Translations under genes and position numbers: made by a program
Part shown: positions 2,831-9,377 of the stretch, piece by piece
How the letters are laid out: the number at the start of each line of letters is the position of its first letter
Numbering within the stretch: position 1 is the stretch's first letter
Notes under the pieces: generated by a model
Databases searched by the model: none
What the model saw: the letters and a program-made list of their open reading frames with translations, nothing else
What the model was told of the DNA's origin: nothing
Assembly (NCBI GenBank): GCA_021498095.1
Contig: JAIZWK010000001.1
Span: forward strand, 1,290,001-1,322,000
Origin: Candidatus Harpocratesius repetitus
GTDB taxonomy: Archaea > Asgardarchaeota > Lokiarchaeia > Sigyniarchaeales > Promethearchaeaceae
Direction: 5' to 3'
DNA length: 32,000 bases

Positions 2831-3754
2831 CTAAAACGAATATGTATTGATTAGATTTAGTAATTTTTTTGGATGATCGGTAAAAATTCCATCAACATTC
2901 CAATCCAAAAGCTTACGCATAGTGTTTTCGTCGTTAATTGTCCAAACATGCACTGCAATTCCTACTGTATGAGCAAATTCTATAAATTCGGGATTAATTA
3001 TTTGGAAAATAGAATAACTTTCTGGAATTTGAAGTGCGATATAAGGTAATTTTTTTCCAAAAAATTTAATTTGGCAATGTTCCCACTCTTCAACTATATC
3101 CGTTGTTTCATAAGTTCGATTATGTACTTCCGTTTTATCGTATCCCGCGTTGATGCTGTTTATCGAACTTTTTGCATTTTTGGATTTTATCCAAAATTGG
3201 AGTACTTCTTTAGGACCTGCAGAGGTTGAAATCTCAGGTGCTACTTTTCTGAATGAATTAATCTGCTTTTGATGAAAAGATCCAACCATTACACGTTCTT
3301 CAACGCCCATTTCTCTAAGTTGTTTTGCTAATAATTTGGGTGCTACAGAATTTCGATCTTTAATATCAATATTAAATCGTATTTTAGGAAAAATTGGAAT
3401 TATTTCTTCAATTGCGTATATTCTATATCCTTTTCCTCGATAAGGATAGGTAATCTTTCCATTTTCAATTTGTATGAAATTATAACCTGCATCAAGTTGT
3501 TTTAATTCTTTCAATGTGTATTTAGAGATTTTTCCATTACCATTTGTAGTGCGATTTAGTTTTTCATCATGGAAAAAGACGAAATGATTGTCTTTTGTTA
3601 AATGAATATCAGTTTCAATGCAATCTACCCCGCTATTAAATGCGTCTTCAAAAGCTTGAAGAGTATTTTCAGGAATATTAGCACTTTCACCTCGATGAGC
3701 CATTACAAGAGGGCGGTAATTTTTAATAAAGGGATTTTTTGAAAGATTCCACAT
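2831..3754 (-). CDS. Glycerophosphodiester phosphodiesterase (GDPD family)
   Basis: AHRG, PENTL, IETDIHLTKD, FFHD, VHVWTIN and GIFTD motifs of the GDPD TIM barrel. Confidence 0.93.
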   Translation of the reverse strand: MWNLSKNPFIKNYRPLVMAHRGESANIPENTLQAFEDAFNSGVDCIETDIHLTKDNHFVFFHDEKLNRTTNGNGKISKYTLKELKQLDAGYNFIQIENGKITYPYRGKGYRIYAIEEIIPIFPKIRFNIDIKDRNSVAPKLLAKQLREMGVEERVMVGSFHQKQINSFRKVAPEISTSAGPKEVLQFWIKSKNAKSSINSINAGYDKTEVHNRTYETTDIVEEWEHCQIKFFGKKLPYIALQIPESYSIFQIINPEFIEFAHTVGIAVHVWTINDENTMRKLLDWNVDGIFTDHPKKLLNLINTYSF

Positions 3755-3877: not shown

Positions 3878-4684
3878 TTAACCAGGGATCATAGAACTTT
3901 CAGATTTTGTAAATCGTTTTGCTGTGGAGATATGATCGATTGAAGGGATAAAGAAATTTTCGTCGATTTCATTGATTTTAGAAAGGTGGTGCTTTGGTTT
4001 GGTTGTTTGAATTATTTCTGAAGGTTTTAATATGTTTCCTTTAAAAATTTGAGTAATCTCTTTCTTATAATCATTTTTTATATTACCTGTATCAGGTGTT
4101 TTGTAATTTGGAATTTTATTTGAAAAAAGTTGTGCATTATTTTTTGTGGTAATTGGAGGAGAATTTAAAGATAATTTATTTGATGTATTATTTCTTGGAA
4201 TTGGAGGTGGTGGGTGTGGTGAATGTGGTGGAGATGTTGAAGTGATTGAATATGGAGGGTAATATGGTTGTTGTCCATGATATGGTTGATGGTATTGTGA
4301 TTTTGTATGATATAAGATTTGTGTCGATGAGGGGCTCAGCCCTTGGACAATTAAGGGAGAAGTTTCTTGATTTTTTTGGAGGCTTTGTTTCAGCATCATT
4401 TTCAAATATAGGTTTTCTTCTTCAATTGTGGTAATTAACTTTCGTTCAACTCGATTCTTCTTCTTTTTCATGTGATCGTATTTCTTTTTGGTTACAAGTA
4501 GCGAATTCAATACATAATTAAAGGTTATATAAGAGTGTGTAGAATGTGCCAAATTTTTACGCATTTTTTGTAATTCTTGATAAATTTCATCAGAAACTCT
4601 TATAGAATGATTAACTTTTTGTGATTTACGTTTTTTTTCTTTGGTAATTGAAGAATTGAACAGTGTTTTTTGAATCAAAGTCAC
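3878..4684 (-). CDS. Hypothetical protein: RHH-like N-terminus, coiled coil, Pro-rich region, WH2-like motif
   Basis: SIRVSDEIYQELQKMR...TFNYVLNSLL (strand-helix-helix); basic coiled coil at aa 66-104; PPHSPHPPPPIP; EITQIFKGNILKPS; GTG start. Confidence 0.65.
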   Translation of the reverse strand: MTLIQKTLFNSSITKEKKRKSQKVNHSIRVSDEIYQELQKMRKNLAHSTHSYITFNYVLNSLLVTKKKYDHMKKKKNRVERKLITTIEEENLYLKMMLKQSLQKNQETSPLIVQGLSPSSTQILYHTKSQYHQPYHGQQPYYPPYSITSTSPPHSPHPPPPIPRNNTSNKLSLNSPPITTKNNAQLFSNKIPNYKTPDTGNIKNDYKKEITQIFKGNILKPSEIIQTTKPKHHLSKINEIDENFFIPSIDHISTAKRFTKSESSMIPG

Positions 4685-5049
4685 AATTGGAATAAAATTA
4701 TACGAATTATTAATTAGCTTGACCTTGCTTATTTTTTTGATCTTGAAATTGAATCACTGCAAATCTAAATTTTTTGTTTATCTTATTTGGATATTCTAAA
4801 ATTCTTTCATAAAAAGAAGAATAGAATGATTTCTAAAGTATCGGCTAATTAATATAGAGAATATTGATTATTTACAAGATTCCTCTTCAATTATATATTT
4901 TGCAATCATAATATAAAGATCATAAGATGTACTATTATTATTAATTGATAAAATTAAATCAACAATAAATTTGAGAAGGATATTAGGAGAAATTTATATA
5001 AAATCCTATTAATTTAATGTTATCTTCCTTATCTCTGATAATAATATTT

Positions 5050-5064
5050 TTGCATAATATGCAA
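5050..5064. promoter_or_regulatory. Inverted repeat, candidate operator in the 554-bp divergent intergenic region
   Basis: TTGCATA-A-TATGCAA, perfect 7-bp arms. Confidence 0.35.
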
Positions 5065-5193
5065 GATTAAAAAAGTTTTTATAGTCATAGTGTTTTAAGT
5101 AATCTAATAATTATTTCCAAATCAGAAGGGTTTTTTTCTTTTATAAAAATCGCCATCAGAGGTTTGGCTGATTTCGACGCATCAAGGTTGCTT

Positions 5194-5213
5194 ATCTCAA
5201 ATTAATTTGGGAT
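5194..5213. promoter_or_regulatory. Palindrome, candidate autoregulatory operator of the ArsR-type gene
   Basis: ATCTCAAATTAATTTGGGAT with perfect 12-bp core CAAATTAATTTG, 25 nt upstream of ATG 5239 and downstream of TTTATAAA at about 5140. Confidence 0.4.
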
Positions 5214-5238
5214 CAAAATTACAAAATGGGGTAAATAT

Positions 5239-6771
5239 ATGGTTGAACAACTTGTACAAACACCACTTTCAACCTTATTATATAGGGAAAAATTGGATAA
5301 AATAACTTCTGTGTTGAAATCATTAGCCAATGAAAAGCGTATTGATGCTTTAATACTACTGGATTCTCAATCTCCTCTCGATTTTCAAATTATAAAGGAT
5401 CAATTACAAATTTCAAAGACTGCTTTATCCAATCATTTGAATATTTTAGAAAAAGAACATTTAATCACAAGGATTTCAAGAGGAATTTACGCAATTACCA
5501 AAAAAGGTTCCACTTTCTTAAGTGTAAATGCTTCATTGGTAATGGATATTGAAAAAAATTTGATGTATTATCTTCAATCTAACGTTAAAATTCAAAAAAA
5601 AAATAATCAAAATTCTTTTTCATCTGAAATGTGTGTGATCTTGGATAAACCCTCGACATATATACCAAGTTTTAACTCTCTTTCAACCGGAATTGCAATA
5701 TTTCAGCAGCTAGTGCAGATTGAATTTCCAAAACATTGGATTTCAGCGATTATGGGCATCTGTTTTTTAAATTGCTTGTCTATCGAAAAATATGAACTAA
5801 TGTACCAATATCAAAACATTACTAAACTGGATTTACTTAAAAATTTAGAGCAATTTGGAATATATTTTATATCATATTATGAAGAACGAAGTCATATTCT
5901 AAGTTCAGATGTAATTTCTTTAGAAGATTTTAATCGAGCAAAAAATATTTTCACTCTAATTAAAAATGAGTTAAAAAAAACAAAAAAACCTATTTTAATT
6001 TTTGGACTTGATTATCCTGGATATTCGTTGATTGTAGGGATTCAAGAAGATAATTATATTGTGGATGTACTTGAAGCAAATATTCCTATAAAGCGAAAAA
6101 TTATTCGATTTGATAATTTTATTCAAACACCATTTTTGAATATTGTAATAGTTAGGGAATATGATAAAACTATTCACTCTACACCAGAATTATCTCATGA
6201 AAAAGTAAGATCTTTTATAAAAAATCGAAAAAATATCAATGGATTCGAAAAGCTAAGCAAAATTGAAAGATCCCAAAAAATTGGTATAATAAAAATGCAA
6301 GAAACAAAAAATATGGACATATTTCCAGTTATTTTAAAAAATGCTGTTGATCTTGCATCAGGAAATTTCCAATCAAATACAGACGAATATACAGGAGAAA
6401 ATGTGTATAATGCTTGGAAAATTTTAATAAAAGAAGTATTGATATATGAACATGAGTCATGTATAGAAAAATGTAAAAATTTGCTAAATCTGTGCAATTA
6501 TTTCATAGAAATGAAGGAAGATGCATTTAAATTTTTGAATGATTTGGCTGAAAAAAATAAACGTTCTTCAAAAGAATTTTTACTGCGTTCTGCTGCAAAT
6601 TTATATTTTAAAATTATGAAAAACATGCTGCTTATACAAAATTATCTTAAAGAATTATTAACGAACACAAAAATAGACTCACATTGTGCATTTGAAGAGA
6701 TTTTAGACGAAAATACTGTGTTTGAACATAAAGCAATAAAGTTTCTTAAAGATTGTACATATCTTTGGTAG
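5239..6771 (+). CDS. ArsR-type winged-HTH regulator with a large C-terminal domain (possibly BtrH/C39-like fold)
   Basis: LKSLANEKRIDALILL...ISKTALSNHLNILEKEHLITR ArsR signature; KPILIFGLDYPGYSLIVGIQEDNY resembles C39/BtrH-like strands (inference). Confidence 0.75.
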   Translation: MVEQLVQTPLSTLLYREKLDKITSVLKSLANEKRIDALILLDSQSPLDFQIIKDQLQISKTALSNHLNILEKEHLITRISRGIYAITKKGSTFLSVNASLVMDIEKNLMYYLQSNVKIQKKNNQNSFSSEMCVILDKPSTYIPSFNSLSTGIAIFQQLVQIEFPKHWISAIMGICFLNCLSIEKYELMYQYQNITKLDLLKNLEQFGIYFISYYEERSHILSSDVISLEDFNRAKNIFTLIKNELKKTKKPILIFGLDYPGYSLIVGIQEDNYIVDVLEANIPIKRKIIRFDNFIQTPFLNIVIVREYDKTIHSTPELSHEKVRSFIKNRKNINGFEKLSKIERSQKIGIIKMQETKNMDIFPVILKNAVDLASGNFQSNTDEYTGENVYNAWKILIKEVLIYEHESCIEKCKNLLNLCNYFIEMKEDAFKFLNDLAEKNKRSSKEFLLRSAANLYFKIMKNMLLIQNYLKELLTNTKIDSHCAFEEILDENTVFEHKAIKFLKDCTYLW

Positions 6772-7670: not shown

Positions 7671-8525
7671 TTAAGTAAGAAATATGCGCAAAATTAAAGA
7701 GTTTAAGTCTAATGAATCCAGTAACTCGTATTGGTGGACTATGTATGGATAAAGTGTTTTGGAATATGCTAATAATCTATTTGCTTCAGGTATTCTTTGC
7801 TTTATGGTATTATGAAGCTGAATTGCAATCATAACTAATATCCTACGTAAAAGATCTTCTTCCAAATTAAGCGGGTTTAAATTTACAACATTCCATCCTA
7901 ATTCTCCATAAGATATGCTTTTCAACTCTGGATAATCTTGAGTTTCAGGCATTTGTTGAAAATCTTCAAGTAAATTTTTAATCTCTTTATGAATTTCTGG
8001 AACCTTATCTGGATCAATATATGCAAAATATTCAATTAGAATATTAGTTAAGCGATTATATATTTGCTGAAAAATACCAATCATATCAAACATACGCGCC
8101 ATTCCACCTGAAATTATTTTCTCGGCTTGTGCCCATTGATCATGAAGTTCATCGAGTACTTCTCCAAAATCTGCAAAACGTTCTTGGTTAATTAATGTTT
8201 CTTCCAATTCATAGGGAGTAAGGTGATATTTTTCTAGAAACATTTGATAAATAACTTCAAGTCTAGAACGCATAATTTCAGGATTTTTATCTTTTGATCC
8301 TGCTGCTATAAGAAGTAAGTCAGTATCAGGATGATTTGAATAAACCCAACTTAGTCCTGCCATTAAAATTGATGAAATACCATGAGATTGAAGTTCGACT
8401 TCAGAAAATGAATTTAACGCAGTTAACAATCCAGAAACTAGATCTGGATCTAAACGTAACTCAGAGTAACTTCGATAGAATAATGTAGTTGAATTGAATT
8501 TATTGATTATCCAAATGAAGTTCAA
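7671..8525 (-). CDS. Longin-like domain protein (Asgard type) with helical C-terminus
   Basis: FIWIINKFNSTTLFYRSY-x-DPDLVSGLLTALNSFS-x-ISSILMAGLSWVY-x-LLLIAA longin pattern; TTG start. Confidence 0.7.
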   Translation of the reverse strand: MNFIWIINKFNSTTLFYRSYSELRLDPDLVSGLLTALNSFSEVELQSHGISSILMAGLSWVYSNHPDTDLLLIAAGSKDKNPEIMRSRLEVIYQMFLEKYHLTPYELEETLINQERFADFGEVLDELHDQWAQAEKIISGGMARMFDMIGIFQQIYNRLTNILIEYFAYIDPDKVPEIHKEIKNLLEDFQQMPETQDYPELKSISYGELGWNVVNLNPLNLEEDLLRRILVMIAIQLHNTIKQRIPEANRLLAYSKTLYPYIVHQYELLDSLDLNSLILRIFLT

Positions 8526-8774
8526 TACTTTACACCCATAGTATTATATTAATAATATACTACTTTGCTTTTTGAGTTAAAGAATTTATTGCTGAGTAGA
8601 TTCAAAATATTATTTTTATTTTTTTATTGCATGGCAAAGGCGGGTGGCAAATACATAAGAAAATTTAACTGAATTGTATAACTCTTTGAAAAAATTCCAT
8701 CTTTGATTGGAAAGTTTCCATTTCACAAAGTAAAAATAGTTTTAACCGTTAAAGTTCTATGGGTAACTATCATC

Positions 8775-9377
8775 ATGACACAAAAAAAAAATCCACATTT
8801 GATCTATAAAATAATTTTAGCTGGGGATGGAAATTGTGGGAAAACTACACTTCTTCGTTCAAAGTTAGCCAAGCAATTTGTTCCAGTGGAAAAAATTACA
8901 ATAGGAATTGATTTCGATTGCTATAAAATCATAAATTACCAAGAAGAAGATGTTGATTTGCTGGCGTATGATCTTGGAGGACAAAAACACTTTCAATTCA
9001 TACATTCTGCATTTATTTCGGGTGCTAAAGCCGCAATTGTGTTCTATGATTTGACTCGAGCATCAACAGTGGAAAATCTTCCTCACTGGATAAATTTGGT
9101 ACAAACTGAATATCCATCTATTCCAATCGTTCTTGCAGGGTCGAAACGAGATTTAGTAGATCGTGAAACTATGGATGAGTTTAATCAAAAAATCCAAGAA
9201 GTTATTCAACAATTGCCCCCACATACGAATATTGTCGATCATGTAATGTATTCTGCATATTCATTAGGTGAATGTAATCAAGTATTTGCAGAAATCCAGA
9301 ACTTGGCAGTATCATGGAAGAATCAAATGATTGCATCCAAATCGAATGCAATAGATACACAACAAACATCAATTTAA
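8775..9377 (+). CDS. Ras-superfamily (Rab-like) small GTPase
   Basis: G1 GDGNCGKT, G2 TIGIDF, G3 DLGGQ, G4 variant SKRD, G5 SAY; ATG 8775 preferred over TTG 8703. Confidence 0.92.
   Translation: MTQKKNPHLIYKIILAGDGNCGKTTLLRSKLAKQFVPVEKITIGIDFDCYKIINYQEEDVDLLAYDLGGQKHFQFIHSAFISGAKAAIVFYDLTRASTVENLPHWINLVQTEYPSIPIVLAGSKRDLVDRETMDEFNQKIQEVIQQLPPHTNIVDHVMYSAYSLGECNQVFAEIQNLAVSWKNQMIASKSNAIDTQQTSI

Follow-up and report, generated by a model that had tools for sequence, protein, structure and literature searches.

What does a protein with a predicted DNA-binding head and a highly conserved tail on a proline-rich arm do in the cell of a Lokiarchaeon? This question is raised by a gene at positions 3878-4684, on the minus strand, of a 32,000-nucleotide stretch of the genome of Candidatus Harpocratesius repetitus. 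The stretch, called the window here, corresponds to 1.290-1.322 Mb of a single-contig 4.36-Mb genome and is AT-rich, with 27-35% GC. The gene encodes a protein of 268 amino acids (aa) with a predicted isoelectric point of ~9.9. A reading of the letters alone (the sequence-only reading) had proposed that the protein is an adaptor between DNA and actin, built from a ribbon-helix-helix (RHH) domain, a coiled coil, a Pro-rich linker and a WH2-like motif.

The explanation that we consider probable, with modest confidence, is a DNA-anchored RHH/coiled-coil adaptor that presents a new conserved tail module to a protein partner. The tail module is a new motif or mini-domain and not a WH2 motif. In the N-terminal 100 residues the second helix of the RHH would run on into the coiled coil, and from this continuation a parallel dimer or a dimer of dimers is expected. 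DNA would be bound through the paired beta-strands and the basic N-terminal arms; the fold is seen in the structural model and DNA binding is predicted from it. A flexible Pro-rich spacer of variable length would hold out the most conserved part of the protein, a 40-65-residue module in which an amphipathic helix would lead through an invariant Gly and a K-P-S helix cap to a second short helix and a basic T-x-P-K-H turn. The dimer would show two copies of this module to its partner. The partner may be a cytoskeletal or membrane-traffic protein (Lokiactin or the Rab-like GTPase near the gene in three genera), which we prefer, or else the protein's own coiled coil. The parts of the gene and the region upstream of it are as follows (pLDDT, predicted local distance difference test).

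3878..4684, minus strand: whole gene, 268 aa, GTG start, single copy in the 4.36-Mb genome
4613..4684, minus strand: Lys/Arg-rich N-terminal tail, aa 1-24, length varying among relatives
4496..4612, minus strand: RHH domain, aa 25-63, with strand SIRVS, helix A (aa 32-49) and the start of helix B (FNYVLNSLL)
4364..4495, minus strand: coiled coil, aa 64-107, continuous with RHH helix B
4106..4363, minus strand: low-complexity spacer of Pro, Ser, Tyr, His and Gln, aa 108-193, pLDDT <50
4196..4231, minus strand: polyproline core PPHSPHPPPPIP, aa 152-163, encoded by a 9-nt repeat
3989..4105, minus strand: C-terminal core, aa 194-232, Y.PP.TGN-helix (DY..EI..IF)-G-x3-KPS-helix (EI...T)-PKH
3908..3988, minus strand: second part of the C-terminal module, aa 233-259, I.EI.EDF.IP.I..ISTAK.F
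4685..5238, no strand: divergent intergenic region, 554 bp, AT-rich, common to the winged helix-turn-helix (wHTH) gene 5239-6771

When the sequence was re-examined, the open reading frame (ORF) and all four elements lay where the sequence-only reading had put them: the RHH-like segment at aa 26-63, the basic coiled coil at aa 64-107, PPHSPHPPPPIP at aa 152-163 and the WH2-like segment DYKKEITQIFKGNILKPSE at aa 205-223 (nt 4016-4072). Support for the GTG start comes from the closest homologue, in which M stands at the same position and the N-terminal TLIQKTLF also occurs.

A protein family of one Lokiarchaeial lineage

A Pfam search with the whole protein gave no family match, and a word-index homologue search found two near-identical proteins only. 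An exhaustive HMMER search of 1.8 billion representatives recovered 32 proteins at E <= 1e-3, most of which match best in their C-terminal region. The nearest database relative is a hypothetical protein from Candidatus Harpocratesius sp. that is 86% identical. One architecture is found throughout the family alignment (A2): basic N-tail, RHH, coiled coil, Pro-rich spacer and C-terminal module.

The distribution of the family was surveyed by running its profile against 400 Asgard genomes. Matches over most or all of the profile's length came only from the window's own GTDB family, in 12 of its 13 genomes, and 53 other genomes matched only profile positions ~9-88 (the RHH and the start of the coiled coil), in ORFs of ~80-115 aa. 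A profile of the tail alone found 11 of the 13 own-family genomes, always with the tail fused to the RHH-coiled-coil part, and nothing credible outside this family; weak matches in two further genomes (G080 and G270) lie in unrelated proteins and were rejected as chance. Exact look-up identified the members from Candidatus Lokiarchaeum ossiferum B-35, NEF87_001512 (UYP45227.1, 237 aa) and its paralogue NEF87_002360 (UYP46075.1, 214 aa), and from Promethearchaeum syntrophicum MK-D1, DSAG12_00811 (152 aa). Judged by these profile searches, the protein family to which the gene belongs is an undescribed one that occurs only in a single Lokiarchaeial family (Harpocratesius, Lokiarchaeum, Promethearchaeum and their kin).

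Small RHH proteins of ~80-100 aa (MTTTIQI..ETK.KLF...) occur widely across Asgard genomes, and what they match of the profile is its N-terminal part only. They were seen at G000:C1:3311385-3311681 in the host and at L020-L037, with PF02697 matches just under threshold, and they may be the ancestral stand-alone form of the family's N-terminal domain.

The RHH domain and the coiled coil

A monomer model was made with AlphaFold2 from the 32-sequence alignment; a 3-sequence alignment was uninformative (mean pLDDT 42). In the model aa 21-100 have pLDDT 87-98 and the helices span aa 32-49 and 55-107, the latter being a single helix with pLDDT >95. Structural comparison matched this half to the N-domain of pED208 TraM (Z 5.9, 48/50 residues aligned), to the RHH and coiled coil of MatP (Z 5.3, root-mean-square deviation 1.9 A over 57 residues), and also to MazE antitoxins, 1y9b and coiled-coil structures; the Z values for the RHH matches are modest. 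Foldseek matched ParD2, TCP and TraM, and CopG-family clusters were matched in AFDB and the ESM Atlas. The family consensus of the domain is SI.V...Y..L....lGGkiT/SFNMVIQSLL followed by a heptad-rich helix, and the relatives have a G-x-x-(S/T) turn before helix B.

Sequence searches gave fainter signals. No Pfam family reached its cut-off for the RHH part, and a PDB profile search with the RHH block found no RHH. The only PDB sequence match is the RHH protein HP0222 (1x93), at E 0.87. The most frequent sub-threshold Pfam match among the members is PF02697, a VapB-type putative antitoxin family, which is also the top match for aa 20-110 (E 0.015) and for the ~90-aa relatives, with a best score of 24.7 bits against a cut-off of 27.9. 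The region has the strand-helix-turn-helix unit of an RHH and is like solved RHH domains, so that this part of the sequence-only reading is supported by the model, the structural matches and the family consensus. The RHH and coiled-coil assignment is accepted on the strength of the predicted structure; the sequence evidence is weak and points the same way. From the RHH fold and the basic N-tail we infer dimerisation and DNA binding, and the N-tail is likely to be a DNA-contacting arm.

The spacer and the C-terminal module

The Pro-rich linker of the sequence-only reading is conserved in the family as a spacer with a PPP(P) core, which is always present and reads PPPP(PP) in A2, and with a length that varies among relatives (71% gaps in the alignment). 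Runs of at least three prolines occur in 27/32 members. Runs of at least four occur in 10 proteins of a 3281-protein greedy gene set from the host, against 4.2 expected. At the DNA level the 9-nt repeat TGGATGTGG is found at 4202-4232, and the strongest GC skew of the window (+0.34 on the plus strand, at 4001-5000) arises because the C-rich Pro/His/Ser codons of the spacer are on the minus strand.

The part held out by this spacer is the best conserved of the whole protein. The consensus of the module is TGNLKxDYxxEIxxIFxGxxxKPSEIxxxTxPKH..., and the full tail in A2 reads Y.PP.TGNLK.DY..EIKQ.F.G.ILKPSEI...TKPKH....I.EI.ED..IP.I...S.AK.F. In the 32-member alignment E209, G216 and P221 are invariant and D205, F214, S222, T228 and P230 are nearly invariant. 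The mean pairwise identity is 0.51 in the C-terminal core, 0.29 in the second tail part, 0.25 in the RHH and 0.21 in the coiled coil, and aa 203-250 are 100% identical in the 86%-identical orthologue. The second part is conserved in most genera and absent from the short MK-D1-type proteins; proteins of the MK-D1 genus end 12 residues past the motif, which there reads GS[VF]PKPS. The sequence-only reading had asked for a conserved motif beside a variable linker, and the family has just this: the helix-Gly-x3-KPS motif is kept while the spacer varies.

Is the module a peptide displayed to a partner or a domain that folds by itself? In the AlphaFold2 monomer aa 190-250 have pLDDT 86-92, non-helical stretches included, which suggests that the modelled tail makes tertiary contacts within itself or with the coiled coil. 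The predicted second helix (221-228) is opened by the conserved K-P-S-E, like a helix cap. These two features would suit an ordinary RHH transcription regulator without any tie to the cytoskeleton, whose small C-terminal module is folded and modulates DNA binding as an effector, oligomerisation or self-docking domain. RHH proteins are mostly repressors, and the gene sits behind a divergent promoter region, as described below. However, a long variable Pro-rich spacer between domains is atypical of small repressors, and conservation in the tail is double that in the DNA-binding domain. In addition, the MK-D1-type proteins keep the helix-G-PKPS-helix only, which is too little for a stand-alone domain. 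No fold match was obtained for the tail either: a PDB profile search with it gave a chance match to OxsB only and no WH2 or thymosin chain, nothing usable came from a feature search of the ESM Atlas with aa 190-262, and Foldseek and VIA searches of PDB, AFDB and the Atlas, which were dominated by the N-terminal part, gave matches for aa 21-117 only. We regard a plain regulator as an unlikely explanation, though one to be taken seriously.

Is the tail a WH2 motif?

The sequence-only reading regarded the tail as WH2-like. If the tail were a WH2-type motif that binds G-actin and follows a profilin-type polyproline tract, the protein could tether DNA to Lokiactin or regulate actin assembly. Several observations fit. 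The spacing around G216 is canonical, I210 (G-6) and I213 (G-3) are conserved hydrophobic residues, h-K-x-S/T follows at G+3 to G+6, and the motif is always preceded by a Pro-rich tract. The host has a true Lokiactin of 384 aa that shares ~60% identity with eukaryotic actins. On actin, the gelsolins of Asgard archaea use an LKKT-like element (PMC9433394), and in the literature that we found this inter-domain motif is the only WH2-like element so far described in Asgard archaea (PMC9433394; bioRxiv 10.1101/2025.11.30.690169). Two distant relatives, L021 (G134:C16, ORF 967-2517) and L027:1498-2319 (G130:C4), have an RHH, a coiled coil and tracts of P5-P8. The first carries LFRTGKKILKST (GKKILKST) and the second LFDAGVKLQPV (GVKLQPV), and both of these motifs look more canonical, closer to the LKKT/V type. 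Both proteins have an extra acidic/helical C-terminal domain of ~130 aa, and in L021 there is in addition a long N-terminal extension, repetitive and basic, with masked bases in it.

The tests of the motif itself point the other way. PF02205 has a gathering score of 23.1 bits; with matches sought at E <= 10, it gave none for the protein, the 32 full-length members or the 32 excised tails. In six-frame scans of the host genome and five relatives it reported no locus of the family, and its best host match lies elsewhere. The family aligned to the host genome's own tandem WH2-like repeats in hhalign with a Prob of 0.2%. Within the 3281-protein set the pattern used for the segment (h..h..G..h[KR][KRHNP][TVSIA]) was observed in 6 proteins against 10.8 expected from shuffled sequences, and a stricter WH2 pattern hit one protein, which is not this one. 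Because the WH2-like pattern occurs at chance frequency, the reality of the segment rests on its conservation and not on the pattern match. Position 219, the Leu of LKKT/V, is L or I in about three quarters of the 32 members; about a quarter have R, K, Q, V or S there, and all four genomes of the MK-D1 genus have Pro. G-7 is an invariant Glu.

The part of the WH2 proposal that stood is the spacing around G216 and the conservation of the motif; PF02205, the variable Leu and a region that is modelled as structured, unlike the disordered WH2, speak against it. The WH2 label is not supported for the tail, as it fails on PF02205 and the conserved Leu, and the invariant E209, G216 and P221 are not WH2 hallmarks. 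Also against it, Loki profilins have been reported not to bind polyproline (PMC8410842). The Pfam profilin model had no match in the host genome, and control genomes show that this search is uninformative. A WH2-type motif is improbable in our judgement. Slimmer is the chance of the specific form of this idea, a chromosome-to-cytoskeleton tether in which a DNA-bound RHH/coiled-coil dimer would carry polyproline arms ending in a divergent WH2/thymosin-like module that grips Lokiactin. Actin binding by the tail has a low probability.

A protein outside the window is, from its sequence, a far better WH2 candidate than this tail. It has 492 aa, is encoded at G000:C1:3988193-3989671 on the minus strand (L046:682-2160) and consists of about ten repeats of ~45 aa, each with a motif of the LLKEIxxGxxL(K/x)K(I/V) type and a charged helix. 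It is the best PF02205 match of the host genome (E 0.69 in the six-frame scan; 13.3 bits, with PF02205 as its top Pfam family, below the cut-off). Its MK-D1 orthologue has 479 aa (L101:430-1869).

A wider family with polyproline tracts

A search with L027 found a separate, highly conserved and undescribed family of small coiled-coil/polyproline proteins (alignments A6 and A7). Their layout is a helical head, a coiled coil, (GPP)n or P5 and an invariant C-terminal tail, RPAsPxSLRGaIMxELKxLFxKRk. The family is present in 13/13 of the own-family genomes and in other Lokiarchaeia. The host copy (G000:C1:1118108-1118512, minus strand; L077:5001-5405) has 134 aa, P5 and P4 tracts and the C-terminal helix SLRGSIMDELKSLFNKRR. 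A 697-aa protein of MK-D1 (L081:814-2907, plus strand) has a C-terminal membrane helix and, internally, polyproline and TLRGGMTEELKTLFSK. Since the tail motif of the small family sits inside this membrane protein, the tail helix behaves as a portable module.

Could the RHH proteins be an RHH-headed offshoot of a wider Asgard family with a coiled coil, polyproline and a conserved tail helix (L-K/R-x-x-h-h-x-E-h-K-x-h-F) that would dock on the same partner in all of them? The portable helix and the broad occurrence of the small family agree with this, as does hhalign, which related the two families with a Prob of 85.5% and E 5.7e-6 over 122 columns and laid TGNLKkDYvkEIKQvF on sPxSLRGaIMgELKQLF. 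However, the coiled-coil and polyproline composition may inflate this score, and at E <= 0.1 a 30-position tail profile of the small family had no match in the RHH family. What follows the helix also differs, with G-x3-KPS-helix here and a C-terminal K-R-K there. A search for longer fused forms of the small family found none, and polyproline words probably crowded its candidate list. Common descent of this kind seems to us quite improbable as the explanation of the protein.

Chromosomal setting

The sequence-only reading likened the protein to ParR, which would lead one to expect an actin-like gene and a centromere nearby. This setting was not found: the three actin-family genes of the host lie at 0.38, 2.03 and 2.26 Mb, the gene studied here is at 1.29 Mb, and there are no centromere-like (parC-like) repeats, which also counts against the WH2 explanation. 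No iterons, tandem repeats or Rfam RNA were found in the upstream region 4685-5238. This region is presumed to be the promoter region and is the first candidate target of the RHH; its position between the gene and the divergent wHTH gene would be in keeping with a transcription regulator. No mobile-element genes were found around the locus, and the chromosomal context is ordinary.

On the same strand the neighbour is a GDPD phosphodiesterase gene (2831-3754). Synteny with the GDPD and wHTH genes is kept within the genus only, and in other genera the neighbours of the family gene are unrelated metabolic genes. A Rab-like GTPase homologous to that of window positions 8703-9377 is near the family gene in three genera: 58 bp downstream on the same strand in L. 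ossiferum, at 1.4 kb in MK-D1 and at 4 kb here. This proximity is a weak lead that may reflect functional linkage or residual synteny. The GTPase belongs to a longin-like/Rab-like GTPase pair (window 7671-9377), and Rab-like homologues are at L038:10401-10982 and L040:11698-12264.

In two other genera (g2 and g3) the family gene is directly followed, or overlapped at its end, by a conserved ORF of ~90-105 aa without a Pfam match (L041:9462-9779, L042:10280-10555 and L043:10345-10623); it has no counterpart in the window. An antisense ORF inside the gene (4246-4434, plus strand) was considered and found to be without support.

Points against an adaptor

Several points weigh against the adaptor that we favour. 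RHH-like folds can serve dimerisation alone, and DNA binding is predicted here from the fold. Judged by its model, the tail may also be a domain that is self-contained or docks on the protein itself, and not a peptide for binding a partner. An operon partner conserved across the genera was not found. The partners named above are candidates. In the listed part of the L. ossiferum proteome/Lokiactin co-immunoprecipitation table (bioRxiv 10.1101/2025.11.30.690169, Supplementary Table 2), the expected identifiers GNAMCCOK_01525-01530, which come from an interpolated mapping, and the expected masses are not among the rows listed, and no conclusion is drawn from this.

Significance

Because the two best-studied cultured species belong to the only Asgard lineage in which the family occurs, the function of the family is directly testable. 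To our knowledge no DNA-segregation or DNA-anchoring system has been described in these organisms. The actin regulators named for them in the literature that we found are profilins and gelsolins only. A core single-copy protein that is predicted to bind DNA, and in which conservation is highest in a tail on a polyproline arm, is a concrete candidate link between the chromosome and another component of the cell. Even if actin is not the partner, the tail is a new, sharply defined candidate interaction module, and there may be a relationship between its helix and the one in the tail of the widespread Asgard coiled-coil/polyproline proteins. Actin binding, if true, would be important: in a Lokiactin tether one would have an archaeal precursor of ParR-type segregation adaptors as well as of the eukaryotic actin regulators that combine polyproline with WH2.

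Comparison with known systems

How does the protein compare with known DNA-binding adaptors and actin regulators? For aa 25-72 its fold is that of the TraM N-domain and of the CopG, VapB-type (PF02697), ParD and MazE proteins. However, no toxin gene is adjacent here, and the C-terminal 160 residues are without a counterpart in those proteins.

In E. coli the C-terminal tail of MatP links DNA to the division-ring protein ZapB. MatP, the organiser of the Ter macrodomain (PDB 3vea), resembles the protein in having an RHH that is directly followed by a coiled coil, a match with a modest Z score in a range that is common for long helices. Unlike the archaeal protein, MatP is bacterial, has an N-terminal four-helix bundle and lacks the Pro-rich spacer and the conserved 60-aa tail.

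ParR of the type II (ParMRC) plasmid partition systems offers the same adaptor logic: a DNA-binding RHH dimer at the N-terminus (predicted for the archaeal protein), then a flexible stretch and a short element at the C-terminus, which in ParR inserts a helix into the actin-like ParM. Here there is no adjacent gene for an actin-like ATPase, there are no centromere-like repeats and no sequence similarity was detected between the two proteins. The gene is instead a chromosomal core gene of one archaeal family, and its product has a long coiled coil and a polyproline spacer.

With WH2/beta-thymosin motifs and with WASP, WIP and Ena/VASP the protein has in common polyproline, an amphipathic helix, Gly and h-K-x-S/T, with the same spacing around the Gly. 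It differs from them in giving no signal with the hidden Markov model, in its unconserved Leu, in an invariant Glu, Gly and Pro that are foreign to WH2 and in a region that is modelled as structured. The Asgard coiled-coil/polyproline/tail-helix proteins lack the RHH, end after the helix with K-R-K and are spread across Lokiarchaeia, but they share with the family the coiled coil, the polyproline and the E-h-K-x-h-F helix.

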